Positions 1 to 48,719 of a stretch of DNA of 64,000 nt are shown in pieces. Each line of letters starts with the position of its first letter. Within the stretch, counting starts at the first letter, position 1. The DNA is from Saccostrea echinata. Lineage: Eukaryota. Made by a program: the position numbers and the translations under genes. The notes under the pieces are model-generated. The model was not told the DNA's origin. It saw only the letters and a program-made list of their open reading frames with translations, and did not search any database. The stretch spans positions 42,160,001-42,224,000 of the forward strand of contig NW_026889750.1 of assembly GCF_033153115.1 (NCBI RefSeq), in the 5' to 3' direction.

Positions 1-469
1 GAAAGACAAGTAATCCAACTAACATAGTGTACCTGAGATTATTAATTGTATGTATTAACTGCAAACAATGATAAGACAAAAGAAAATTAGAGTTTAATCT
101 TCTCGTCAAATAACACAGAATTGTCATTCTTTTTTTTCTTTCAGTCGGACTAACTTAGACATACTCATTGTTTCAACCTTAAATAAGGAAGGTGAAAAAA
201 TAAACTGTAAAAGATGAGGAGTTGTTTAACTTGCATCTTCATGACAGCGTGACAGGTCATTGACACCCTTCGCGTCCACAATCTTGAATTAATTATAATT
301 CGATTATTTACAACCGTGTTGTGCTATACTTTTCTTCAGCTTTGAACACTATCGTATATTTCTGACAAATCCATCATTTTATATCAATATTTATGTTGTG
401 GTTCAATTTGTTTATTTACTGATCCCACAATTATTTTTTGGAAAACAATGACTCTTAGTTCCGAATATG

Positions 470-531
470 TATAAAAAGAGGAAAAAGCTTGCAATTTCCA
501 AGTTAACTTCAGGAATTTCGCTACACAAGGT
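470..531 (+). promoter_or_regulatory. Candidate TATA box plus short non-coding first exon/donor of the 91-aa secreted peptide gene
   Basis: TATAAAAA at 470-477, an initiator-like ccaagtt ~30 nt downstream, and a donor CAAG|GTAATT at 529/530. Pairing it with the 1323 acceptor is inference. Confidence 0.55.
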
Positions 532-864
532 AATTAAGGCATAATTTTAATATTGTATTTATGTAACTAAAAGTAGTACTAGTGAGATTTTATTTAATAA
601 GAATTTTGTATTGAATGATGCACATTTTATTTTCTTTCAAAAATTCTCAAAATTACTTGATTTTTAAAAGTTCTTTCAGATTTTTTGATTAGTTATTATA
701 GATACAGGATCTATCAGAGGAGATGGGATGGCGGCAAAATTATTTGATTAACCAGAAATAGGAATAATTAATGTACAGTTCTAAATTATCGATACTGATA
801 TTTAACCGTGAAAATGTGTTTCATGTAATCTTACAAAGGAAATTACAGAGAAATAATGAAATGT

Positions 865-1035
865 GAAGATAACAACAGTAATCATGCTTAAAAAAAACCT
901 ATGAAACAGTACAAATTTTTAGCAAAGTAAAAACGGGGCTCTAAAAACCAGAGGGGAGATCAGGTGCCACAGAGGAGTAAACATCCTCTGTCAACCTGTC
1001 ATATCCGCCGCGTGCTCTTTGTAATGATCAGGTAG
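865..1035 (-). mobile_element. Penelope-like retroelement 3' fragment
   Basis: Reverse complement of the family core (gatcaggtgccacagaggagtaaacatcctctgtcaacctgtcatatccgccgcgtgc) shared with copies at 2.8, 7.9, 11.9, 17.5 and 34.8 kb. Confidence 0.65.
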
Positions 1036-1327
1036 ACATGTAAATAGCTAGGGTTNNNNNNNNNNNNNNNNNNNNNNNNNNNNNNNNNNNNNNNNNNNNN
1101 NNNNNNNNNNNNNNNNNNNNNNNNNNNNNNNNNNNNNNNNNNNNNNNNNNNNNNNNNNNNNNNNNNNNNNNNNNNNNNNNNNNNNNNNNNNNNNNNNNNN
1201 NNNNNNNNNNNNNNNNNNNNNNNNNNNNNNNNNNNNNNNNNGCTTCTACAGATTTTTTTTTATTGGGGAAGGAATAAAACTTAGTGCCATAATTGCTTAA
1301 TCATGTTTCTATTTCTTTTTCAGGACG

Positions 1328-1603
1328 ATGAAATCATCTCACTTTTTTATCTGTGCTGTTGTTTTACTTTTTGCTGTATCAACAACAAATTCATTTTCAC
1401 TCCCACGCTATGCGAGAAATGACCCCTACCTGCAGCAGTTGTTGAAGCCTAAAACGGGATCTAAGTATCCAAGCCGGTTCCAGATGCATCTGGCCAGAGA
1501 GTACCTGGATGAAATGGAACCCTATGATTCAGACCACCACGACATGATCGAAGACCGCTTGGAAAACTATTTGGAATTTGGTCTGGAACCTAGATATTTC
1601 TAG
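1328..1603 (+). CDS. Small secreted protein / peptide precursor (91 aa), unknown family
   Basis: N-terminal hydrophobic signal (MKSSHFFICAVVLLFAVSTTNS). The ATG sits 4 nt after an acceptor (ttctttttcag, AG 1322-1323). There is an upstream TATAAAAA at 470-477, a candidate non-coding exon ~500-529 ending in AAG|gtaatt, and AATAAA at ~1744 and ~1867. Confidence 0.8.
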   Translation: MKSSHFFICAVVLLFAVSTTNSFSLPRYARNDPYLQQLLKPKTGSKYPSRFQMHLAREYLDEMEPYDSDHHDMIEDRLENYLEFGLEPRYF

Positions 1604-1784
1604 TCAATTTCTCGTAAGACATTGCATAAATATAACAGAAATGTCGTCTTTCTCAATTTTCGTACAGTTTAAAAAGCAAACTGAGAGATTGTTAACATTC
1701 AGTTTACCTTTTGCAAACTTTTAATCTAGAAATACAAAAAAAAAATAAATATTGTGTCGTAGATTAACCCGAATGGGTATTTCA

Positions 1785-1821
<37 letters not shown>

Positions 1822-2634
1822 ATAAGTGATAATGCTTTATTTCAATGTGTCGTATAAAAGAGCATCAATAAATTTCCTTTTTTCTTTCCTTACAGACTAA
1901 TCATCTTTAACTCCATAATCAGCCGTCGTGTAAACCATACTGTGTACTTATTGTGTAATCCATTCCTTTGTACATTATCTGGCTTCTTCATTTTATATAT
2001 TGTACATAAAAAATGATAGTTATCTTGTTTTTTTTTAATAAATTGTATAAAATTTCTACATCTGTTTGAATTAACATTACCAGTATTGATAATTCATTTT
2101 ATTACTTTAAGGGTTTTTCATAACAAGGGTTTACTCTATAAACATAAAAAGGTGTGGTTATGAAAAAAGTCGATCAAGAACTGCAAATCCTCTGAAAATC
2201 AGAACTTGATTAGCACGTTGAACTGTGAGAATATCTAAATGTTGGTTGGCTGAATTATACAAGAAAACTCATACAAGGAACGGAAGATTTTGGGTGTTAA
2301 TTATAATATGCCAGCTATGAAGCAGTGTTTGTTTTAACCAACCAAAATACACTTGTCATCTTGTCCAGTTCAAAAGAATCGAAAAAAATGGAAGAAAAAT
2401 ATCTTCTTTGGTTGTCTCCGAAAGGAAAAGAAATGAAGAAGACGAGTTAATCGTTCCTTTTTTCCGTCGGTCTATTTGACCCTATTTTATCGATTCTTGA
2501 TGTCATTTGTGGTTGTCTGCAAAACTTGCCAGTAGGCACTTTAAAGGCTATAAAGAGGCCCGTTGGCCATAAAAGTCAGTTGATTTTATGCGCAAAATCA
2601 TGTGCTACTGAAGAACTTTTTTTTTTTAACGAAA

Positions 2635-3005
2635 CAGGCTATAGAGTGATAAGTTGATGAGACAAAGATATCAGCAGTCTCCTTTCAAAAATCAACATTT
2701 CGCAAATTCTATGGTCGATTTAATGACTTTGTTTGCAAGTACAATTAAGCTGTCATAAGGTCGAATGTTGACTGACGTCTTTCATAAAAATTGTTAGGCC
2801 ATTATTTTAACACAGAATTGTCTACGGATCTTTTCATCTACCCATCATAACAAGTTGCACACACCGAGTGTGACCGGTGGTCAGGAGATGCTTACTCCTC
2901 CTTGGCACCCGATTCCACCTTAAGATACGTGTTTGCCCTGCTCCAAATTTGTAGTGTTTAAAAGGACTTTTGGATATGATTGCTATTCGTTATCTTCAGA
3001 TTTCA
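2635..3005 (+). mobile_element. Penelope-like retroelement 3' fragment, inside a degraded HINE-type repeat (~2550-3500)
   Basis: Matches 34570-34945 along its length (aagttgatga..., ttctatggtcg..., gtgtgaccggt..caggagatgcttactcctccttggcacc). Confidence 0.7.
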
Positions 3006-4233
3006 TCATGAAGATGCCTGCATATGAAAAAATTTCATTATGTACTATTGGTGTATGAGAAATTGATTTTTAATGGTTTTTCCTTTATAAAACTTGTAAA
3101 CTTTCATCTTTTATTGTGGGTCAACCCGGGGCCATGATTTGAGCAAAAATGATTTTCTTAGGATATTTTCATATTAACAAGGCTAATCATGGCCTTGCTG
3201 TTCTAGAGAGGAAGACCTTTAAAGATTCCCATTGTAAAACTTTCACCAATAATACTTTTCCCTCTTTTGCCAGGGAGCCAAAATCTACTCTATCCTCCAG
3301 GGGCCAAGATTTGACTAAATTTGAAAAAATTACTACCTGAGAAAGCTTAAAATGACGAATCATAGGCTTGATGATCTTGGGAAAATAATTGAAAGATTTT
3401 TTCCCTTTTTTTTCCCATGTAAAAATTTATTCTCTTTTGTGGACCATCCTAACCCTGGAGCTCATGATTTGAACAAACATAATTCTACACTATTTGATTT
3501 TGTTTTTTTTTTTTTTTTTAACCGTTTTTCAAAGTGTATTTTATCAAGTCTATAGAGCTAATGAGTCATTTAAACAGATAAATGATTCTTCTGTCCTCTC
3601 TTACACTTCTTTTTAATAGATTCATTTTGCAAAGTTCTTGTTAATGACAAATAAAAGATCATTCTAAAGAAATATCACAATTATTAATTCCTTGATAGCG
3701 TATGTTGCAAAACTTTTCACCCTTTTATCTTCATCTTATAAAAAATTTTAGTGAAAACAATAGAGTAACCGAGTTATTACAAAATACATGAATATAATTA
3801 ACCAATAGAATATAAGTGAAAGCCAAGATAATGATTATTGGCATATAATGAAAATATGTTTGAAAACAGTTAATTATATTTTTGGGTAATATATATACAA
3901 TATAATCGACAAACTATAATAATGGCAAATGTTCAAAGGCGAAGATATGCGTATTCAAGTCAAAAATGCAAATATGATATTTGCATAAATCATATGATTG
4001 TCCAATCAGCTTTTAATGACTGTCTGGAAAAAAAAAACACATGTATAGAAGCGAATAATACACTATTATACTAATGCATCGGTAAGAAGGGCGGCTTTCT
4101 TCTAGAAAAAGGCATAATTTCTATAAAAATCCTCTGCCTGTGACAGCTGCCGTATGCTTTTCTGGTATCACGTACAGAAAATTATTGTCTTGTACAAATT
4201 ATAGCTAAGGTGACGATTCGTCATCCCATGGCA

Positions 4234-4302
4234 TATTTAAGACCAATCAGTTCGATATATCGATAGATTAGATCCGTCTGCACGTTAGGAGACCAGGTAA
4301 GA
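4234..4302 (+). promoter_or_regulatory. Candidate TATA-like box and non-coding first exon of the 57-aa peptide gene
   Basis: TATTTAA at 4234-4240 and a strong donor CCAG|GTAAGA at 4296/4297. The link to the 6290 acceptor is inferred. Confidence 0.5.
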
Positions 4303-5619
4303 CTTGCAGCATTTTCTTTGTTTCTTTAAAAATGTCCTTTTTTCTCCATCAGTGAAACATAACTTTGCCCTTTTCTTATATTACCTAATAAACCCACCCC
4401 ATCCCTAATAGTATCGCTCAAATTCAACGGAACACCAAGCTCATGCCATTTTGAACTAATCTAAACAAACACTCTTTTCTAAGTGTGTTTTTTCTTTTCT
4501 TTTTTGACATCTCTTTAGGTAAATATTTGCCTATTAACCTTTTAAGGACAAAAACAAATATTTGGGTAATTTTTAAGTTGGCTTGAAAATGTGTTTCCCT
4601 TTTAAAATATCAATGAAATTATGAAATATCCATTAATACTTTATTTTACAAAATGAAGGTCTCTTTTTTCATTCTATAGAAATGTCTTTTTTATTCTTCT
4701 TCTTAAAACTTTAACTAAAACAAGTTTCACAACACAATCCAAATATCCAAAGTACAAGAGTAGCAGCACATTATTCTTTTTCCAAATTAATTGTGATGAC
4801 TACTAAGATATAAACAATGTCTTTACTTTATGAAAATGGTGTCATTATAACATCTGTGGAACAATAATGACTAGCTATCCGCTGAAATTCACATTCATTC
4901 CTTTTCCCTGTCAAATGCACTAACTAAAGGATAAAGGCATAACAAAAATCAATATTAAACACCAATTATACAGTTTGTAAGTAGCTAAATAAGGTATGCA
5001 CGTATGCCATTAAATGATGTTTAGAGACATGAAATATCTTGTTAAATAACGATCTATTTCAATTAATAAAATCTCTTCTCTAATTTCTTTTTTCTCGAAA
5101 TACTTGATGATTCAAATTGCTAATGAACCAATAATTCATAAAACGACTAATTAAAGCTNNNNNNNNNNNNNNNNNNNNNNNNNNNNNNNNNNNNNNNNNN
5201 NNNNNNNNNNNNNNNNNNNNNNNNNNNNNNNNNNNNNNNNNNNNNNNNNNNNNNNNNNNNNNNNNNNNNNNNNNNNNNNNNNNNNNNNNNNNNNNNNNNN
5301 NNNNNNNTCTATTTCTGGTATATATCATAAAATCGATTTTTGTCTCCTTTGGGGTTAGAGAAAGTGGTATTTTATTATTGAGACATGACCACAAACCTAT
5401 AAACAAAACATACGTAAATGATGATGCATACTAGTATATTTCACATGCATTTCATTACAAGTATGCAAACATGAATGAAAAATCCAAAATAACTAGAGCC
5501 TATATAATTTTTTAGTAGTTAAGGACATGATCACGTACTTTCTGTTAAGTTGTTATTAGGTAATTATTACGCCAATATTGAAATATTACTTCTGTTACAT
5601 TTCTTTTTTATTTTATTTA

Positions 5620-6290
5620 TTCATTTGATTTTGGAGACCTCTGAAGAAAGGTAATCTAGCCTTCTGCTTTTTTATTTATTTAGCACCCTATGTACTTATT
5701 CACAGTGTATTTTGATTCTTTAAAGCATTCAAACATTAAGGGTACCAAAGCCTGCATTGTATTATCTATTCCGTTACTTTTCTTTTTTTTATTCTTTTGA
5801 GTTGAGATGGGTAATCTAGTCTACAGTGTGTTCGCTTTTCTGTTTTATTTTATCACTCTAGCTGTAGAGATGTGACAATCGGGAACCTAGCATACCTTGT
5901 CTTGGCTATTCTGCTATAATATATCTTTTTTTTTCCCATTCTGCAGAACTGTTAATTAAAATGATTAACCCAGACTACATAGATTCTCTGTTGCATTACA
6001 TTTCATTTTATTTTTCATATGCATTCTTTTGAGCTGTGATAAGAAGATGGGCAAACTAGTCTTCATTACATAATTGTTCTTCTGCTTAATTTTTTTTTCA
6101 TTTTTATCTATTTACTCTGATTCTGTGTGATTCTGGTAGCGTCTCCATATGAGTGAAAAATTCTCTCTCGGACATTAACCAACAAAAAATATAGAGAGAA
6201 AGAGACAGAGAGAGAGAGGGGGGATGAGTAACTTACTCTATATTGTGTTCGCTATTTTGTTTTATTACATTTTTTTTTCCTATTCTGTAG
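5620..6290 (+). repeat. Degenerate tandem echoes of the acceptor/ATG/signal-peptide start of the 57-aa gene
   Basis: Copies resembling gctgagaagATGGGTAACGTAGCCTACATTGTGTTC at ~5641, ~5801 (gttgagatgggtaatctagtctacagtgtgttc), ~5880, ~5961, ~6043 (gaagatgggcaaactagtcttcatt) and ~6223 (gatgagtaacttactctatattgtgttc). Confidence 0.75.
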
Positions 6291-6300
6291 AGCTGAGAAG

Positions 6301-6474
6301 ATGGGTAACGTAGCCTACATTGTGTTCACGCTTCTGCTAGTGGTCCTCCTGACCTTGTCAGCGGAAGCCTTTTCTTTCTTTGATGATTTTGAGTACCCCC
6401 GCTTCTTCCGCCCCTCCCCATTCTTCTATCCATACTTCGGTGGATTCGGTGATGACTTCTTCGATGATGATTGA
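6301..6474 (+). CDS. Secreted Phe/Asp-rich micropeptide precursor, 57 aa: MGNVAYIVFTLLLVVLLTLSAEA-FSFFDDFEYPRFFRPSPFFYPYFGGFGDDFFDDD
   Basis: Translated by hand; it is below the 60-aa ORF-track cutoff. Canonical signal peptide ending in A-E-A. Acceptor ttcctattctgtag at 6290; GC-richer codons than the flanks. Donor at 6480, acceptor at 6784, AATAAA ~6855. Candidate first exon ends CAG|gtaaga at 4296/4297 with TATTTAA at 4234-4240. Confidence 0.85.
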   Translation: MGNVAYIVFTLLLVVLLTLSAEAFSFFDDFEYPRFFRPSPFFYPYFGGFGDDFFDDD

Positions 6475-7759
6475 CCATGGTAAAATTTGTTTTTTTATCA
6501 TATCCCTATACAACAAGCAAAACGAAATAATAACTATTGAGGATAATTTCCAATCCTGGAAAATCACGGGAACATCATTTTGAAGTATAGATTATTATGA
6601 TTTACATGGCCTTGACATGCTCTAAGCATGAATGGAATTATAGGCTGATCGGCAATATCTAATTTAAGAGCGCAATATTTATTGTTTAATTTTGTTTGTT
6701 TTATTATTATCATTATTATTATTAATTCATTTCCACAGAAAAATACAAAAGACTTACACAACTCTTTCTCTTTTCTATTTACAGTTAGAAACACACGTTA
6801 CAAGAAGCACCAACTAAACTGTATATTGCACAGAGCATGAAGTCTCCAAGATCAAATAAATTTTGTTAATTTACTTCTAATATGTTGTATATTTCTTAAT
6901 ACACAGACAAATATTGCAATGATCATTCTTCGGCATTGAGAGGACAACAATCAATCAAGGTCTGCATGCACTGAAAATGTTTTCTACAGTTACACAAAGC
7001 CTTTACATCGTCGCGGTATTCAAAAAGAAAAAAAACAGAACTATGCATCTCAAAATGTGTGTTTTAGTTTCGAAAAATTTGTCACAGTTAAGAACATTTT
7101 TTTAAAAAATAGAACTCTTTGCGACAGCCTTCGCGTGGATATCAATTTGATAAATTTGAGGAATCCTGATTATTTACATTTTTATTTTACATGCACGAGA
7201 AAAAAAAAGATTAAGAACCCAAAATCAAATGCTTAGCATTATTTCTCTTATTCTGAAGCAAGACAATTACCGGGTAATAGTTTCTGAAATGCCCTCTTCA
7301 CTTTTTTTTTTATCTTCATCTTTTTCATGCTTCATTTCATTTCAAGTTTTGTCTCTGCAGATATGTCTCTTTATATGCAATTTAATGAGAAAACTCTCTA
7401 TTTGTTTGTTCCTAAATCAAACATAAAAATATCTAGTTCATTTTCTCTTAATAGTGATGCATCGTTTGATAATATTGTAAAGATAGAAAATATTACAGCT
7501 TTAATAAAAAAAATTAAATGCATTCTTTATATAATCTTTTAACAATAAAGATAATATTTTCAAGATGCCAAGTTTTCGTAGCTTTTTAAATAAATACAAT
7601 TTACAAGAAAATAATTAAAACTGTCAAATACCATGGTTATCTGCATTTCTGTCTCTATAATTGCAGCACGGAGGACCGGGCTGCTCTATACATCTCGTAA
7701 GTTTAATTTTTGGTGCATGGGATTGAGGTGGGAGAACTTATTCAGAATTAAGTGGTTAA

Positions 7760-8035
7760 CTACAATGACCTTGTCAGCAAATACAATCTATCATTAAGTC
7801 AAATGCTGACTGACGTTTTTCATACTAATTGTTAGGCCATTATCACACTAAATTGTCGACGGATTTTTCTGTTATTTCCCTATCATGACAACGAGCACAC
7901 GGCGGGTGTGACCGGTCGACACTCCTCCATGGCACCTGATCCCACTTCTGTTGTTTAGAGGTCTGTGATTCCTCTGCACCAAAATTTGTATTGTTTAATG
8001 TACTTTTGAGCTTGAATACTGTTCGTTATCTCCAT
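7760..8035 (+). mobile_element. Penelope-like retroelement 3' fragment
   Basis: Near-identical to 34650-34940 (tacaatgaccttgtcagcaaatacaatctatcattaagtc ... cacacggcgggtgtgaccggtcgac ... ctcctccatggcacctgatc). Confidence 0.7.
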
Positions 8036-8082
8036 ATATTTCATACATTAAAAAGATTATACATCAGAATGTTCTTTCTTTT

Positions 8083-8176
8083 TGTTACATTAAAAGTTTA
8101 AAGTTTAAACTTATCTATAACTATCTAGATAGTTATAGATAAGTTTAAACTTAAGATTTAAACTTTTAATGTAACA
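8083..8176. repeat. AT-rich palindrome (52-bp perfect core 8101-8152 with extended arms)
   Basis: aagtttaaacttatctataactatct-agatagttatagataagtttaaactt is its own reverse complement. Outer arms are tgttacattaaaagttta / taaacttttaatgtaaca. Confidence 0.95.
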
Positions 8177-11100
8177 CCTTTATAAATTACGAGATACACA
8201 ATATATTTACTTCCATGAAGTACATCTTTAAAAATATATGTTTTTCATATGTAATATAAAAAGTCGCTTATCATTTACTATCGACAAAACGACAGGTCCT
8301 TCTTTTTAGAACATTTAATTTTACTTATCTTTACACAGTCTGTGTTTTATATTCATTGAGTCAAATATATATTTGATGATAAGTGATAGATGTGTCTGAT
8401 TCTAATTTATATTTTATGCAGACAACAGTTAATTGAGAAAATGATAAAGATTAAAACGGTATCATTTTTGTTTGATTTTCATCTGATTAGAAACTTTCCG
8501 TAAATCTCGACTAAAGTCTCCATCATTCGTCAGACATATGTCTTTATCAGACAAGTCTAAGCGGTTTGATGATCAAGATTTTACTGCATTTATTACCCGG
8601 GCGACAATTGATGGCAACATCAATATTTTCTTGTTTAATTGTAAGTAAAGGAAACAAAAGTACATCACAAAAAAGTCTTTGATTGAAATAAAGATATGTT
8701 CATATCTCAGTATCGACACAAATGCGTAATTAAGACCACATTGTACATAGCTGATAGATATAGGGTTCAATCAAATCTACTCCTTGATACACTACTGGGG
8801 CTCTAGGTGGGCTTTGGCAATATTGTTAAGTATGTTACACAAATCACAGCAACCAGACCATGTTTGAGCGTTTTAAGATCCTTTTCTTTCGTTTATCTTC
8901 GTTACTTAATGTTGTGTCGATCTGTTCTTACATTTGATATTGTACAAGGGGGTAGGAATTTAATCCATCTGTGAATACGCCCATCTCAGACTGTCAGAGA
9001 GCACTTAAGACTGTTACAAATGATATTTTCTGATAGTCCGCTGAAAGGTCGGCAAGAAGTTTTTCAGCATTTTTCTTTTTCAAGCATACATCAGTCATAT
9101 TTCTCTCATGAATTGATCGTTGATACGATGATTAAGTGTTTAAATGAATTAAAAATAATAATCTACAGAAATTCAATTTCAAATATAATCACTAAAATAG
9201 CTCAGAAGATTGGGCGCTTATAAATTGTAGAATTTTAATTGGTAATATAAAGTTCGATGTAAACTCATTCACTTCATAATCAATTTATCAGATAATTTTA
9301 TTAAGGTTTAATTAGAACATAAAAAAATAAATAAAAGTTCACGTGTATCGTTCATCCTGGAAACGATTTGAATTGATTCCTATAGAAAATCCATATGTGT
9401 TAGGAATTTTATATTGTTATCAACGATTGTCACCGGATATCGGGGCAAACTTGGAGTGGATAGTCCACAACCTGCTATCTTTTAAAGTTCAGAAATAGGT
9501 CAGGTGTCTTCGTAAGAGAATCAATACATATCGAAGAGAGGGCCCTCGATTTTAAAGGGAGTAAAGCAAATTAAAGATCACCGATCGACTCCGTTATGCA
9601 AGATTGGGCGCTTTCACTTAACTTTTAAAGTTTGTCTCCAGCATAGCTGTGTATATTTATAATCGACAGAAATTGGTAAACGTTCTTACTCTGTGAGAGG
9701 ATTTCTAGCAAAACATGGTTAAAAATAGATATTGGAGATAGACGTTTGGTCTTCAAGGTGTGACTCGAGACACGTGTACAGGTGTACAGGTGATTTGTAA
9801 ATTATAGAAACAAAAGAGCAATATTAAAGGAGGAATAAATAAATAAGAAGAATCAACACATGAAAGAAAAAAATATTGGTGAATAGGAGCATAAATCACG
9901 AGAATATATTTACCTTGGACAGGTGAGTTAACCACTACCTTATCTCCTAAATGCTTTCCAATTACACGTGAAATATCGGTTTACAAATTACATGGGCCTT
10001 GACAAGCTGTTTACAACATTTTGAATAGTTGAACAATTTTGTGTTTAAGATTCTAAACAGATGTGGGAAGATTTAATTTCTTGCCTTTGCACTTTTTCTG
10101 ATTTTCTATTAAACATATCAGTTGTATTTTACATTTGTATTTTCTGTTATAATTAATGTAATTCTAGTTGGAAAATGAATACTAGAGATGACTTAGACGT
10201 ATTTGGCTTTAAATTGAAAGCTTTTTCTCTTTTAAAAATCATTTTAAAAAACAAAATAACTATCATACATACATGTTAAGTCGTGTCACTTTTAAAACTA
10301 TTCTGCAAGCTTGAAAAGAAATCATTAACCTGTCCTTTAGCAGTTTTAATCCATGTATACAAAATCATTGCTTTCATTTACCAAGAAATTGTATATTGAT
10401 TTCATTTAATTCTGATTTTAGAATTATAAAGTTAACATGCAGTATAGTTTTGATACTAATTACATTTTAATTCAAAACTTAAGAGAGAAAAGAGCTATTA
10501 CGAACAAATGATTAATATGAAATAAAACGAATGGATTTAATCGAACCAGAATATACTACTGATTCTCTAATAGCATGAAATTAATATTCTATCAGGCCTG
10601 AATAAAACTAGACCAAATAAAAATATATGCATTTTCTTTTCTTAAATTGAACCCCCCTTTGATAACCGGAATCTATTTAACGTATTGAATTTTCAATAAT
10701 ACCGTCGGTTTCAATAGTGTTAAATAAATATTTCCTCTTGTCAACGCGGCTCCTCGACTACATTTAAATTACTATGCATGTTTTAAAGTAGACGACTTCA
10801 CACTTAAAATAAGACAAGGGATACATGCACGATACTATCTCCTTGCCTCATTGTTTCTCAGGTGATTTTTTTAAGATAAGAAATTTGAAAAGCATTTAGA
10901 ATAAGAAAAATCAGTTTCAGTCATACCTAAAAGAAATAAAAGTCAGATATCTCCGTACATGTAAATATACGTGTGTAGTATTAACAGTAAGAAAAATCGG
11001 GTTCACATTAACAGAAATGAGGGATTTAAAAAGAAAAAAAGAGAATTTTTTTAAGTTGTTGAAATTCTTATAAACATCAAATTAAGTAACATACCATCTA

Positions 11101-17620: not shown

Positions 17621-17881
17621 ATTTGATCGGATCATACCTGTATCGGTTTCAAAATAAAATATAAATTTATATTGATATTGATATACGATACATTTAAAAA
17701 AAAATTCTTTGATTGCAACAAAGAATAATCAGCTTAAAGATATACAGTTTTAATTTTTTTTCTAGGTTTCCGTACATTGCTTGACAAGCCTTAGATAAGA
17801 CAAGACAGTATGTGCTACACGACATCTCTTCAGGAGAGATGTCCATCCATTTACAGCTGTTTACAAGATCATTAGCCACCC

Positions 17882-18742
17882 ATGTTTCACAGAGAACCAA
17901 ATCGGGATAGCAGTTTACCTGGTAAAAAGATGGTTCACAAACCTGTTCTTGATGGTAGATTTCGAGATCGGCAAGCCAACCATATTGAAAATCGGCAGCG
18001 TCTTCATTCTGATAATGAAGTGCCTCAAATGGAAACTTCTCAAAACTTTCTTCTACCGCTCACTAAACGTGACTTTTACACGAGAAAAGACACAGCCCGA
18101 AAGAACCTGCTAGGATACTTGTATACCCGACAACCTGTTCTTCACCGCAGCTATTCCTTCGTTGCTGGGGAGAAACCAATCAACGAACCAGGTCTTCCTA
18201 AAATCGCATCTTTTTCCCGAGAAAAGTCGAATCTTGACCTTAGCAAATCAAGGAATCGAAGCTATGAAATGACCCATCATGAACTGGGCCTTGGTCAACC
18301 ATCGAAAATTGGAAAAGTAAGAGAATTTTTAAAATCCGGAAGTTCTAGGTCAATCTGTAGTGTAAAAAAAGAAAACAGGAGCCCTCAAAGATCCCGGACT
18401 AATAGCAACAAAATGACATTGCCGGAAATTATTGAGGATCTGAATAACAACGAAAAATATGTTAATGACACTTACTCAGAAGAGGAATCGTTCGACAGAC
18501 CACGTGGTAGTGATCAAGTGATAACTTTTGTGCCATCTAGACTCATAGGGAACGAACCTAAAGTCTATCCCTCCAGACATAGACCGATTACGCCAAATTT
18601 ATTGAAAAAACTAGATAAATTGAAGATTCCTAATCGAATACGGACCCAGGATTGGGTTAAGATGTTACCATCAGATACCAGAGCATATATCGGAGAATCT
18701 CGAATTAATGCACAGTATGTTCCAGAGGATGTAGACGATTAA
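17882..18742 (+). CDS. Uncharacterised 286-aa hydrophilic, probably disordered protein (single coding exon)
   Basis: Long stop-free ORF in AT-rich DNA with R/S/K/P-rich composition. Acceptor ttttttttctag at 17765 upstream of the ATG. No domain recognised. Confidence 0.75.
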   Translation: MFHREPNRDSSLPGKKMVHKPVLDGRFRDRQANHIENRQRLHSDNEVPQMETSQNFLLPLTKRDFYTRKDTARKNLLGYLYTRQPVLHRSYSFVAGEKPINEPGLPKIASFSREKSNLDLSKSRNRSYEMTHHELGLGQPSKIGKVREFLKSGSSRSICSVKKENRSPQRSRTNSNKMTLPEIIEDLNNNEKYVNDTYSEEESFDRPRGSDQVITFVPSRLIGNEPKVYPSRHRPITPNLLKKLDKLKIPNRIRTQDWVKMLPSDTRAYIGESRINAQYVPEDVDD

Positions 18743-36722: not shown

Positions 36723-39700
36723 CTACTTTCCCTCGTATTCAGGACAAACTGCAAAGAAACACAAAGCAAATATTTAATAATAATAAAAGAAAATCTTAAA
36801 TGAAAATGAAGGTACATGTTTTAGACCCCTTTACATAAGGTAGCATTGAAGAGTAACAGAGGGAAAGCGGAAAGTTTCACACATACCCTGCTGCTGAAGA
36901 ACATTAACTTCCGTCACGTCATTTCCTGTCGTCGTGTATGTGAAGGTGTAGAAGCAGTTGTTATTGTTAAATACTTGGCACATTTTGGAGTTTGCAGAAC
37001 GTTGAGCTTCAGATAAAAATGAAATAAAAATATTATTATAAAATCAATGGGTATTTTCTTACTTTAACTATGTATCTGATATAACATGCAGGATAAAGTA
37101 TTCTTAAAATTCTCCAAAACTTATCTTTATAAAATAATGTTGAGATTCTTTGTGAATTCATGGTATGTTGATGATAAATCAATTACTCACGAATGAAAGG
37201 ACTCAAGGCTTGAATATTATATGATGCACAATTGATTCTGCATTCTCTCTCGTCTTTGTAGCCACTGAAGTCACTGAACGATGTACATGCCACACAGGAT
37301 TTAAGTTCATTACATTTTCCACCACAGTTCTGAAAATTAGTGTTTAACAAAAAACAAATTAACAAAGAGGTCATTTCGACCACAAAGCTCACATGAGTCA
37401 TATTTCTCTTCTCCTTCACCTTCACCTAGAGCTATCTCCGACAGTCACTAACTTCAGCATCTTGATTCTACTACAACACAGGGTCGATTATATATGTAAG
37501 TATGACTAGAAATTGACTTCCTGTTCTGTGGAAGAATTTAAGAATACATCAACTTCTAAATCAAACTTGAAATTTATTGTTTTCCTCCGAAGCTGTGCGA
37601 AAATGACTTAACAAACTTTCAAGAATCTACATTATTTGAGGATGATAACATTTACATCTGGCCCTGATGTTTTTAAGATGTTTCAAATCCCACATATATA
37701 CCTTTGTAAGAGTTTGCCACCTATTATACCTCTCCATTATCTCAGAAGCCAGGAATTGAAAAACTGACCTGAGTCTCTACCTAAGTAAGGTGAGCTACTA
37801 TAAGGTTATATTAATGTTGCTTTGTTATAGCATGAACAGTGTACCAGTGCAACACAGAAAATAACGATGATCATGATGATGAATTCAACAGAACTTTATT
37901 ACTGCAGAGGAAAAAAGAATGTTTATACCTGGCACTGTTCACAGGTTTGTCCGTAATACCCAGGGTTGCACTCGCACATTCCGCATTTACACATTCCATT
38001 GTTACTGCAGACATTCTACCATGAAAAAGAATTAAAATATTTATCACAATATTAAACTAAAATGCATCAATAACATCCATATTTTTTTTTAAACGTTAAC
38101 GTTTGATATGAGATTTTTAAAATCACTTGACAATATTTTGTAATTTTATAAGGAAGGTTCGTGTAAGCGATAATAAATGAATTAATTTCAAAAGCGCAGA
38201 TTTAACGTTATATGTCCTCGAAATCGGATGATCGTTGGGGATACGTCTAGTCCCCGTGACTTTGACCTTCTAGATCTATAAGAATTGAGGGAGGACAAAC
38301 ACTCTGTTCTTTAGCCACCTTCACGGTAAAATGTTCGGGATTGGAACAAATGAAAGCTTGAATTAATTTTAATATGTTGAATATTCATTTTTTCTTGTTT
38401 TTTTTCTGCATTTCACAAAATAAAGTGGAATCGTGGGAACTCCTCCAAACAAATAGAAATAACGACATAACTTACACCGCTTGAATCCGATGAACAAGTT
38501 GCGTTTTGTGGGCAAAGTTCTGTTGGGCAGTCTACAAAGAGTCATATAAAATCAAAGATGGAAATAAAAATAGTACAGACTTACACAGATATTTATAACA
38601 TTGGATTTTACACTAACCTTTCTTCATGGAAACTTCAAAGAATCTGTCATGAATAATTTGGAATTTCATTAAACACCCTTGTTCATCTCTGTACGTGCAC
38701 TTGTTAACATTGTCTGGAGTAAAACAAAGGAAAAAAGTTAAGATTATATTCAAACTTTAAATGGAAGTTAATGAATTTCATGATGATATTGTAGATTATA
38801 TTATATATACCAGGGAATCCTCGGACTCGTCTGAAAGTTGGTGCAAAACGCCTTCCTCCACAGAACTGGCGACACATTGCATTAGGCATAGGTGAACCAG
38901 AGAACACAAAGCAGTCCACACATTTCCCGTAATCAGGACATTGATCCTTACAATTCTAATAAAAATAAAAAAAATGTTTTTAAAAAACATTCATTCGATG
39001 AAACACAGGTGTTAACCTAAAGAGGGGGGGGGGGGGAGAGGGGGGGTTACCTCGCATTCAATGTCATCAGCAGGAGATCCAAGCGGAAGTTTATTCAGTG
39101 ATTCTTCAGGTATGGTGAATCTTGTACCCATTCCGCCACCCGCGGCCCCAATAGGGATTCCGCCTCCCATTGGTCTTATAACTGGCTTTTCTACCACGAC
39201 AGGTGCCCCGGTGGTAGTGGGTCTATCAGCGTCTGTACAGACACACTTGCTGTTGCCTTTGCTACCTTTGGAATCTTTCCATTTGCAGGTAGGGGCATTT
39301 GTTTTCTAGAATTTTCAATAAACAGTATAATTTAAGATCTTTTTTTTTTATTTTCGTTATAACTTTTATTTCTCCAGTGGAGTTGAACCAACATACCTTT
39401 GTGCTGCATTTACAAGGTTCAATCCCGGAGGCAAAGATTCGAAGAACTTGTTTTAGTTTGCCGATTTTGACCCTAAGTTTTAACTTCTTTTTCCTGCAAC
39501 ACAAGTGCTCTCAGAGGTCGAGTACATGTATGTGCTAAATATAGATATAATAATACACTATAAATAGAAATTACAGAATCTTCTTATGAAAATCTAGTAG
39601 AGATTTTGTACACTTGACAATTTTAAGACATTTAAAATCTAAATACAACTCACTCTTTCGTTGTCATATCCTTCAAAAATTTCACCTTTACTGTTATGTA

Positions 39701-44410: not shown

Positions 44411-45193
44411 CTTCTATGCCCTATATTAATCAGAGATGCATGGACGATGGTTCTAGTGTGTTTCATTGTACCAATCATTATCAAGGTTTTAGATTTCAGC
44501 CAAAGAATGGCCAGGTTAATGTTTTTGGAGCAGGTTTAATTTCCAAGTACATGTAACTATAAGCCCTACATTGACTAAATTTGCATGGATGATACATCTA
44601 AGGATGCACATTGCCAGGTTCCAACGGATGCTTGATCTGACCTACATTTTCCGGATGAGTGACCAAGATAATGTTTTTTGAACAGGCATGGGAAGAAATT
44701 CTGTGGATTTTCTCCGGTGTTGCTTTAGACTGAATTCAATCAAAGCGCAATTAACGCTAATCTTTATATTACCCATGAGAGTGATGCGAGACAAATGATG
44801 GCAGCACTGTTGAGGGAAGGATCCAACATTTTTTTCAGATTTAAAATTAAAGCTTTAAAAGAACAATATAATATAAGGCCTTTCGGGGGGGGGGGGGGCG
44901 TGATTTCAATTTCCTACGTGCTCAATAATAATAACGAGTTTAAAATGAAACATATAATTATAGAAAATAAACGAGTAAACGATAAACAAATTAAAATAAA
45001 AAGGAAATTAAATTCCATGTCTGAGTTTGTAACCCTTATTTTTTTTTTTTTTTTTAGAAAATATAAGCGTATCACAGGTTACTAAAGTAATGCCATATAA
45101 AAACACAGGTTTTTTCATAAATATGTCTTCGGATGTATACGGGGTGGAATGGGCTGATTTTAGGGCATAGATGGGAAGGAGAGTGTCTGGGGG

Positions 45194-48100
45194 ATATCAT
45201 TTAGCAAAGCGATTAAATAGTAAAAATTCTTGTTTAGAAAATAAAGCTAATCTTCAATTAGAAAGCAAAAGCTATAAAAAGATACTGGATTCATGTATAA
45301 AAGATTATAGAAAAGGCATGACAAAAAACTTGAAATCACTACGCTCTACAAATACTCGAGATTACTGGAAAATTTTAAATGGTCCAAATATGTCAAATAA
45401 ATGTGCTGTAGATATTAATGCTATGTATGATTTTCTTAAGGGCATCAATGAAGGTTATGATAATGACGTAGAAGATGGTGATACTTTAAGGTTCTCAACA
45501 GACAGCCATGAATGTGATGATTTTTTGAACTTTGAGATTAGTGAGGAAGAAATTTTATTTGCAGTAAAAAAATTGAAAAATAATAAGGCCGCAGGCTACG
45601 ATCAATTGTTAAACGAACATATTTCATCAACAGTATCTATTTTTTTGCCTGTATACAAAAAAATGTTTAATTTGATTTTTGATAGTGGAGTCATTCCAGA
45701 CGAATGGCTCACAGGTATTGTCAAACCGATTTTCAAAAATAAAGGCGACCCAACAAATCCAGAAAATTATCGTCCAATAACACTTTTAAGTTGTCTTGGT
45801 ACGCAGCTAGGTTAAGGACTCCCATATATACGTCAGTCTATGCCGAGGTTCGGGAAAGCTATTATGACGTCACGTTAAAGCAATGCAAATGAATCTCGAT
45901 AAATAAATACTATATGTTCTTTTTAAAACAAACTAAATACTTTCGTTTCTCACAAATATTATAAAAATAATTGAGTGTGCAACTTATCTTGCCATAATAG
46001 CACTTAGCGTTTGTAGAATGAAAGCCAGCTTGATCTCGCTGTACTTACTGAGATGACGTCATTTCTTAGTTTGACACGCAGTTTCTCTGTACTTGAGGCG
46101 TGGATCAAGCTTTTATCATAGCTTGTAAAAATAAAATTAATGACGAAACACGCGTAGTCCGACCAAAATAGAGACGTATTCTGAAATATATTAATCTACA
46201 TTATATTGTCAAACTAAATTGATCATGTGTAGACATAATATATAAGCCGTAGGGAGCACATCTGTACAGTAACGTGCTAGAATGACAGGTCCAGTCCTTC
46301 GAAAATGTCAAAAAGTTCAACGATATCCGCTTCACTATAAATTCTGAATTTTTAAACACGTGTAGCTATTATTCCTACTATTCTGAAAAGTGCTGGGAGC
46401 TGGTTGTGCATTGTTTATTTATTTCGTAATGTAACATTATTCTAATGTGTATTATATCTATGTCTGGAGTTTACAGAAAGACGGCAAAATTTTACAAATT
46501 TCCCGAGCACGAGGAAGTTGCTCCCAGCACTTTTCATGTTAAGGAATTTGTCTCAAAGAAAACAAAATAAATTTTATAGCGGAAAGAGGCCCGTATATCG
46601 TTGAACTTTTACGATCTTTGTAGTAGTACATATATGTTCTAATTGTAAACCTGTCACGTGACAAACAGCTGATGTAAGCGAAGTCGCATTGGCCGAACTC
46701 AGCAGAGACCCGATATATACAAGTGCACACACCACGATTCACATTCATCAAAACTAATGCTGTTATAAAAAATATTAAAATTGTATTCATTTTCCCTGAA
46801 TATATTAAGGCGTATATTTCATGGGCGTCCTTAACCTAGCTGCGTAAGCTTTTTACCTCCATTTTATGTAAACGTTTGGAATGCTATGTAGAGAATTTAA
46901 ACCTTATAAGTGAAAGTCAAACTGGCTTCAGGAAAGGATATTCGACCTTAGATAATATACTGACTTTACATTTTCTTACAAATATGGTTATGTCTTTCAA
47001 AAAGAAACTTTTCTGTGCTTTTGTTGACTTTAAACAGGCATTCGACACGGTGTGGAGAAATGGGCTTTGGTACAAATTGTTAAATAATGGCATTAGTGGT
47101 AAATGTTTTACATTTATAAAAAATATGTATAATGGAGTTAAGTCCCTTGTGACTATGAATGGTTTTTCATCTGAGTTTTACAACTGTAACATTGGTGTAC
47201 GCCAAGGAGAAAATTTATCGCCTCTCTTGTTTTCTATGTATATTAATGATTTAGAAGAATTTCTCATTAGTAAAAATGTGCATGGGCTATCCTTTAATGC
47301 AAGCAGTTCAAATACTGTAGAAAACCAATTTTGGCTGTATTTTAAATTATTTATTTTGTTCTATGCTGACGATACAGTTATGATGTCTGAGTCTGCTGAG
47401 GGTTTGCAACACGCTCTTAATGAGTTTCATTCGTATTGTTTACAATGGAAACTGAATGTCAATGTAGACAAAACAAAAATTATGATTTTTTCGAAAGGTC
47501 CATCTGTAAAAAATGTATTCTACTACAATAATTCTGTTATTGAAATTGTGAATGAATTTAAATACCTAGGTATACTATTTTCCCGATCCGGTTCATTTTG
47601 TAAGGCTAAAAAACATTTATGTGAGCAAGCTCAAAAAGCCATGTATGGTGCTATACGAAAAATTAGACAATTTAATTTACCAGTAGATTGCCAGCTTGAT
47701 TTGTTCGATAAAGTTGTCACACCAGTACTTTTGTATGGATGCGAGATATGGGGTTTTGAGAACATTGAAATAATTGAACGCGTCCATCTCAAGTTTTTGA
47801 AATATATTTTTAATCTGAAAAGTAGTACTCCTAGTTATATGGTTTATGGCGAAACGGGTCGATTCCCTTTGTATATAACGGTGTATATAAGAATGATATC
47901 ACATTGGGCAAAATTACTGGTAAGCCCTGAAAATAAGATTGTTTATGTTACATATAAGAATTTATTTGAACAGTTTTGTTCAGGAAGTCATAAGAACCCT
48001 TGGATTTTATGTATTAAGAATATACTTGATACTTGTGGCTTCTCAAATATATGGAATGAACAGGCCTTTTTAAATATAAAATGGCTAAAAATTATAGTTG

Positions 48101-48719
48101 AACAACGTCTTAAAGATCAGTACATACAGAAATGGCAAAGTGATATGCGCGATTCGTCTAAAGGTCATATGTATAGTATCTTCAAAACAGAATTTGGATT
48201 TGAAAAATATTTAGACTTTCTACCTAAAAAATTTAGAACAATTTTAATTAAATTAAGAACAGCAAATCATCATCTCCCAGTTGAGACTGGGAGATGGTTT
48301 GGAATTCCCAAAAATGATAGACTCTGTAATATCTGTAATAATGGACAAATAGCTGATGAGTATCACTATATTTTAGAATGTCAATTTTTCTCAGAATGCA
48401 GAAAAAAGTATCTACCGGGTAAATATTGTAATAGACCAAATTTCTACAAATTCTCAGAATTGTTGTCAACTGCTGACTCCAAGGTATTAATCAAACTATG
48501 CAGCTACATAGATAGGGTATATGAACAAGTCTGTCCTCCATAATTATTATTATTATTATTATTATTATTTTTTTTTTTTTTTTTTGGTTACTTTATAATT
48601 TGAATGTATTTCCGCCATTTCACGTGTATCTTGCATATTGTTTTTGTATATATTGTACATAGAACCTCATGTACCATTAATTGGTTTGAGTGAATAAATT
48701 GAACTTGAACTTGAACTTG
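45194..48719 (+). mobile_element. 5'-truncated non-LTR retrotransposon (LINE); RT plus C-terminal CCHC; ORF split by a MITE
   Basis: RT motifs NYRPITLLS, QTGFRKG, FVDFKQAFD, GVRQGENLSP, YADD, KYLG and a C-terminal CNIC..DEYHYILEC. 3' AATAAA plus (TTGAAC)n tail. No endonuclease domain present. Clade (RTE-X or L2/Crack-like) not determinable by eye. Confidence 0.95.
45802..46844. mobile_element. 1043-bp non-autonomous TIR transposon with TA target duplication
   Basis: 24-bp TIR cgcagctaggttaaggac(t/g)cccat with one mismatch. TA at 45800-45801 and 46845-46846. Excision restores CLGKLFTSILCKRLE. Confidence 0.95.

Follow-up and report, generated by a model that had tools for sequence, protein, structure and literature searches.

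The window analysed here, a 64,000-nucleotide stretch of Saccostrea echinata DNA (contig NW_026889750.1), contains a three-exon gene that is transcribed and spliced, with its entire coding sequence in the second exon. The encoded protein is a member of a conserved family of predicted secreted micropeptides that is unnamed in the collections searched, and consists of a hydrophobic leader followed by a short, acidic and strongly aromatic chain. The likeliest reading of this chain, to which we give about an even chance, is a shell-matrix peptide that would act in the manner of prismalin-14 and prismin of the pearl oyster.

Transcript and gene structure

A contig of 361 nt from run X1 maps without mismatch to positions 4221-4294, 6289-6478 and 6784-6873 of the window, on the forward strand and with GT..AG joints. 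Exon 1 (4221-4296) is non-coding, its 5′ end being the end of the contig and not necessarily the true start, and is linked to exon 2 by the joint 4294>6289; if the transcript does start that far upstream, it would also contain an upstream open reading frame of 12 codons (4228-4266, forward strand). Intron 1 (4297-6290, 1994 nt, GTAAGA...TAG) includes an N gap. Exon 2 (6291-6479) comprises a 10 nt leader, the entire coding sequence and 5 nt of 3′ UTR, and is matched, beyond X1, by mismatch-free contigs in X2 and X4. Intron 2 (6480-6784, 305 nt, GTAAAA...CAG) lies within the 3′ UTR, with its joint present in both X1 and X3, from two studies, and the X1 contig continues into exon 3 (6785-6873), which is 3′ UTR with an AATAAA at 6855-6860. 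Since the stop codon ends at 6474 and exon 2 at 6479, the 3′ UTR intron begins 5 nt past the stop. Introns within roughly 50 nt after a stop codon escape nonsense-mediated decay, and the sequence-only reading, which had proposed a three-exon gene with an intron safe in this respect, is borne out both by the spacing and by a spliced transcript with GT-AG joints, the lack of which it had named as refuting.

Five runs are listed, four of them with part of the stretch, and X1-X4 were aligned. None is recorded as RNA, and their RNA nature follows from the spliced joints. Contig depth is 41 in X1 and 2-4 in X2-X4, depths that cannot rank expression. A single T>A at 6406 in one contig of depth 2 may be an error.

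The coding character of the frame is evident from its base composition. Phe is encoded ten times by TTC and three times by TTT, whereas the share of TTC in the background is 0.28 (p = 4e-4), a bias which argues that the frame is neither a poly-T artefact nor a T-rich read-through. The GC content of the coding sequence is 48%, versus 30% in the flanks on both sides. Codon use, GC content, splicing and conservation together rule out a poly-T or intron artefact, and the opposite-strand frame was ruled out as it contains stops. The window has 177 frames that start with ATG and are 40-120 aa long, and one of them combines a hydrophobic leader with an aromatic share of at least 0.3 and an acidic share of at least 0.2, a count that is descriptive only, the thresholds having been chosen after the peptide was seen.

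Composition and predicted structure of the peptide

The frame at 6301-6474 (forward strand) translates to 57 aa, a hydrophobic leader and, after the residues SAEA, a 34-mer. Residues 1-23 (6301-6369) are predicted to form a signal peptide from their hydropathy and their conservation, 13-19 of the 23 residues being identical between sequence pairs, and cleavage after S-A-E-A would leave a mature 34-mer (6370-6471). The hydrophobic stretch of the leader is short, about residues 7-19 by hydropathy, and has no basic N-region; its S-A-E-A/F junction is conserved. Hydropathy and junction fit the secretion that had been proposed, which is a prediction from sequence.

The 34-mer contains 12 Phe, 3 Tyr, 7 Asp, 1 Glu, 2 Arg, 4 Pro and 3 Gly, with four FF pairs, no Cys, Lys or Ile and no tandem repeat, such that Phe and Tyr make up 44% of the chain, in agreement with the counts given earlier. 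With 8 of its 34 residues acidic, it has a pI of about 4.05, a net charge of -6 and a mass of 4.25 kDa. The acids are clustered at the C terminus, where Asp fills five of the final seven positions (p ≤ 0.004 in all four aligned sequences). An N-terminal acidic patch holds three acids in the window's peptide versus one or two in the relatives. Of the acidic ends that had been described as flanking an Arg/Pro core, the C-terminal one thus stands as a conserved feature, whereas the N-terminal one is weak in the relatives. The four FF pairs are close to the mean of 3.9 obtained by shuffling this composition (p = 0.61), and neither the amphipathic moment, calculated for helix and strand, nor the evenness of aromatic spacing exceeds that of shuffles; with FF count and spacing at chance, the notion that FF motifs act here as drivers of self-assembly finds no support. 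When the 34-mer was modelled as a four-chain complex, the score was 0.02.

An AlphaFold2 model of the monomer, built from an alignment of four sequences, gives a confident helix for the leader only, running over residues 2-29, and a pLDDT of 51-58 over residues 31-57. The mature peptide is likely to be disordered, which agrees with these values, the agreement being weak at an alignment depth of four sequences.

Relatives and conservation

Word-based protein searches returned P0002 first and then P0003 and P0004, and a third round with the four sequences returned none more. HMMER, run over 1.84 billion representatives, gave four matches at E ≤ 0.001, namely P0003, P0004, P0005 and P0006. P0005 differs from P0004 at 2 of 55 residues and was counted with it as one lineage, and P0006 (E 1e-6) was dropped as a tandem-repeat read-through that matches 20 positions six times. 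There are consequently four relatives in three lineages, three of which were aligned and are 71, 64 and 62% identical to the window's protein, so that the conserved open reading frame put forward earlier as a check on the gene is present in each lineage. The relatives are gene calls with extra residues before the aligned Met, which we infer to come from a prokaryote-style caller reading through the intron just before the ATG. Where a source is listed, as it is for three of the relatives, it is a Logan or JGI assembly, and the sole name given is ‘hypothetical protein’.

Conservation was counted over the six pairs that can be formed among the window's protein and its three aligned relatives (P0001-P0004). 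The acidic tail DDFFDDD (residues 51-57, 6451-6471) is invariant, with 7 of 7 residues identical in every pair, and is also found in P0005, and the SPF[FY]YP core (residues 39-44, 6415-6432) is identical at 5-6 of 6 residues in all six pairs. The stretch after the leader is identical at 5-9 of 13 residues between pairs, and the Gly linker, at 0-5 of 6-7, is the least conserved block. An unchanged acidic tail and a nearly unchanged aromatic-Pro core, beside a drifting post-leader stretch and linker, suggest that selection acts on these two segments. The aromatic share is 36-44%, the net charge -4 to -6 and the Tyr count 2-5 across the four mature peptides, all of which are without Cys and Lys. 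The three relatives have 2, 2 and 3 FF pairs, and the one invariant FF is that within the tail.

The gene had been called unannotated, and indeed no annotated collection that was searched includes the family. A collection of 15 billion proteins lacks the exact protein, P0001-P0004 match no Pfam family at E ≤ 1, sequences in the PDB give no match at E ≤ 10, and the Atlas offers no usable match for the 57-aa peptide. Rfam has no match over positions 1-10000 of the window, and no related locus with DNA context was found in metagenome contigs, viral contigs or prokaryote genomes. The literature searched contains no Phe-rich oyster, bivalve or shell peptide of this type, the motifs matching one irrelevant full text, and other oyster proteome supplements and subscription papers could contain the peptide under another name.

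Intron 1 copies and genomic surroundings

Nucleotide comparison reveals seven decayed tandem copies in intron 1 (5644-6290, forward strand), starting at 5644, 5735, 5804, 5875, 5958, 6044 and 6221, of a unit that consists of the first ~40 nt of the coding sequence and a pyrimidine tract. They are identical at 22-31 of 40 positions, four of them at 26-31, whereas no other site in the window exceeds 22, and are spaced 70-90 nt apart, one gap being filled by a repeat; TRF reports none. Some copies keep the AG and the ATG, and that at 5804 would read 22 codons; only the last acceptor of the intron is seen in use, in the X1 contig. Because the copies follow the form that the leader has in this lineage, tandem duplication of the boundary between intron and exon is their likely origin. 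There is no second full copy of the peptide gene in the window.

Five kb upstream lies a gene of the same exon layout (1328-1603, forward strand) for a 91-aa predicted secreted peptide, which is basic in its first half and acidic in its second. Its coding sequence is contained in one exon and followed by a 3′ UTR intron 10 nt past the stop; the predicted introns end at 1323 and span 1614-1895, an AATAAA is found at 2037, and two contigs, from X1 only, cover the predicted last exon (1900-1982). The 91-aa peptide does not align to the 57-aa peptide, belongs to no Pfam family above cut-off and has Atlas look-alikes below 0.9 only. Among 11 ATG frames preceded by an acceptor, only those of these two genes begin with a hydrophobic stretch.

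Elsewhere the window, which has introns and a GC content of 28-39%, holds several other features. Two divergent, related multi-exon genes for secreted proteins (28531-30677, reverse strand, and 31046-36274, forward strand) encode products that start with Cys-Pro-x-Tyr-Gly-Cys-Arg-Pro and have long last exons without a Pfam family above cut-off. Integrin-beta-tail-like exons are located at 37183-39305 on the reverse strand (E 1e-4 and 6e-3, which do not reach the curated cut-off), and an exon with F-box and SPRY, which we take to be FBXO45-like, at 63141-63845 on the same strand. A non-LTR reverse-transcriptase element (45171-48543, forward strand; RVT_1, E 4e-32) is present as two frames ~1 kb apart, and between these pieces, on the opposite strand, is an 83-codon frame (46790-46539) with a hydrophobic leader and four Cys that could be a small secreted gene or chance. 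Two long single frames of about 280-290 aa without a Pfam family occupy 53207-54052 and 17876-18742, both on the forward strand, the former ending in two hydrophobic stretches.

Possible function

We tentatively propose the following for a shell-matrix peptide. The leader would be cut off the 57-residue precursor after S-A-E-A to release a secreted, likely disordered 34-mer, presumably of mantle origin, whose Phe/Tyr/Pro part could adhere to the chitin of the organic framework or to further copies of the peptide, and whose invariant Asp tail could bind calcium or a calcite surface. Such a role is supported by spliced contigs from two studies, by relatives in three lineages, by C-terminal acid clustering that is significant in all four sequences and by the absence of Cys, Lys and dibasic sites. 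The pI of about 4 is close to that of prismalin-14, aspein and other acidic matrix proteins (PMC6003135). Furthermore, a low-complexity, acidic chain of low pLDDT corresponds to the make-up of shell matrix proteins, usually a signal peptide with low-complexity, domain-free sequence (PMC8032588).

Several observations nevertheless speak against the shell-matrix reading. Shuffled sequences have as many FF pairs, and in aromatic spacing and amphipathic moment, too, the peptide does not rise above them. To our knowledge, the known matrix proteins of the prismalin type are Tyr/Gly-rich and not Phe-rich. The family motifs are also missing from the tables that print sequences of larval and adult shell proteins for C. 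gigas and P. fucata (PMC6231486), although trypsin digestion of the peptide would by calculation yield detectable fragments of 11 and 23 residues; the searches behind those tables relied on gene models and on the transcriptome of D-larvae, which may lack this gene. Exact conservation of a seven-residue tail would, moreover, exceed the need of a simple calcium-binding patch, and a receptor ligand would fit it equally well.

The second-ranked reading is accordingly that of a secreted signalling ligand (a hormone, pheromone, or gamete or settlement cue) whose receptor would read the C-terminal DDFFDDD, which we consider improbable. The tail is the same in every sequence and the remainder varies, and a fixed motif in an otherwise drifting chain is the usual pattern of peptide ligands; the neighbouring secreted peptide also matches neuropeptide-precursor look-alikes in the Atlas, all below 0.9 and inconsistent, a lead only. 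Weighing against a ligand, P0001-P0004 have no dibasic cleavage site (KR, RR or KK), no terminal Gly for amidation and no Cys, and the searches matched none of the hormone families in Pfam (E ≤ 1) and gave no usable Atlas match for the peptide itself. The same arguments from composition that favour a shell peptide would serve for a structural peptide of cement, ligament, periostracum or mucus, working through aromatic stacking and cation bridging and not through crystal action, and oysters do make cement after a larval byssal thread (PMC12817120). The lack of Lys and Cys and the presence of only 2-5 Tyr, however, leave little room for the DOPA chemistry typical of mussel adhesives (PMC12817120), and our literature search found no Phe-rich bivalve adhesive; we rate this reading below the ligand.

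More doubtful again is an anionic aromatic peptide for defence or metal binding at mucosal surfaces. Many mollusc defence peptides are small, secreted, Pro-containing, encoded in a single coding exon and lineage-restricted, and our peptide shares these traits, its secretion being predicted. Its net charge of -4 to -6 and lack of Cys, on the other hand, are at odds with the cationic and disulfide-array criteria of mollusc antimicrobial peptides, its amphipathicity, whether as helix or as strand, is no greater than that of shuffles, its tail changes slowly and is not diversifying, and the window holds no second full copy; a review ties activity in the ALF family to net positive charge and treats short anionic stretches as propeptides (PMC10608444). 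Finally, the leader might remain uncleaved in a single-pass membrane micropeptide whose acidic aromatic tail would regulate a membrane protein. The single AlphaFold2 helix over residues 2-29 and a leader conserved at 13-19 of 23 residues without a basic N-region are compatible with this; the hydrophobic stretch, however, is a short one of about residues 7-19 that runs out in the invariant S-A-E-A/F, a small-residue motif typical of signal peptidase sites, making a membrane role very unlikely.

A bolder version would make the secreted 4-kDa Phe/Asp peptide a gene-encoded amphiphile, switched by the calcium of seawater or extrapallial fluid into fibrils or a coacervate, in which DDFFDDD would combine a diphenylalanine stacking unit with a calcite-binding face, and thus a component of shell or cement missed by gene-model-based shell proteomes; we regard this as unlikely. 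For now, it is an orphan predicted-secreted peptide of a sort common in molluscs. With 34 residues and no Cys, it is obtainable as a synthetic peptide, which makes calcium binding, crystal shaping and self-assembly directly testable. Since no collection searched names the family, published oyster inventories of shell, cement and hormone components that were built on gene models may lack it.

Comparison with known matrix proteins

Aspein and Asprich resemble the 34-mer in being secreted and disordered (both probable in the case of the 34-mer), richer in Asp than in Glu and free of Cys, and bridging of Asp by Ca2+ has been proposed for aspein (bioRxiv 10.64898/2026.06.03.729799). They differ in having hundreds of residues, 60% Asp and almost no aromatics, compared with 21% Asp and 44% aromatic residues in the 34-mer. 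An aromatic-rich region in a mollusc biomineral protein has a precedent in RTMP1 of the chiton radula, whose Trp/Phe-rich (WF-rich) region is proposed to bind chitin (PMC6351634). In contrast to the 34-mer, RTMP1 is large and multi-region, with Gly/Ser repeats and a His-rich part, and belongs to magnetite teeth.

The analogy drawn above is with prismalin-14 of Pinctada fucata, which is likewise small, acidic, aromatic- and Gly-rich, D-rich, domain-free and secreted, the latter being predicted for the 34-mer. Prismalin-14 is about three times longer; its ends are rich in Asp, and it has a repeat region of Pro, Arg and aromatic residues as well as tandem Pro-Ile-Tyr-Arg repeats. The block order of the 34-mer, in which an acidic and aromatic start is followed by a Pro-Arg-aromatic core, a Gly-aromatic linker and an Asp tail, parallels that of prismalin-14, with Phe for most Tyr; the tandem Pro-Ile-Tyr-Arg repeats are absent from the 34-mer. 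Prismin-1 and prismin-2 reportedly have precursors of about 51 aa, with an acidic, aromatic and Pro-containing sequence and a prismalin-like C terminus. The sequence searches with the 57-aa peptide and its relatives gave no named match to them, and the HMMER matches include neither prismalin-14 nor prismin, in libraries that may or may not contain these proteins.

Prismin is presented as a second family of prismatic-layer matrix proteins in P. fucata (PMC7591529, PMC3128620, PMC3120837, PMC8032588), and prismalin-14 as a GY-rich and D-rich protein of the prismatic layer (PMC4660305) whose GY-rich region is cited as chitin-binding (PMC8217771). Such a Gly/Tyr-rich chitin-binding region is absent from the 34-mer, which has three Gly and three Tyr and a Gly/Phe linker. 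Whereas prismalin-14 is Tyr/Gly-rich with tandem repeats, the 34-mer is Phe-dominated and repeat-free, and the searches gave no sequence match between the two. With GY-rich region and tandem repeats lacking and no homology detected, we do not assign the 34-mer to this group of proteins. An Asp-rich C terminus of the prismalin-14 and prismin type is nonetheless present in the 34-mer, and, if it is a matrix component, the peptide would be the equivalent of prismalin-14 in a minimal form based on Phe, and would provide a model from nature for the FF-acid peptides that are made by design.
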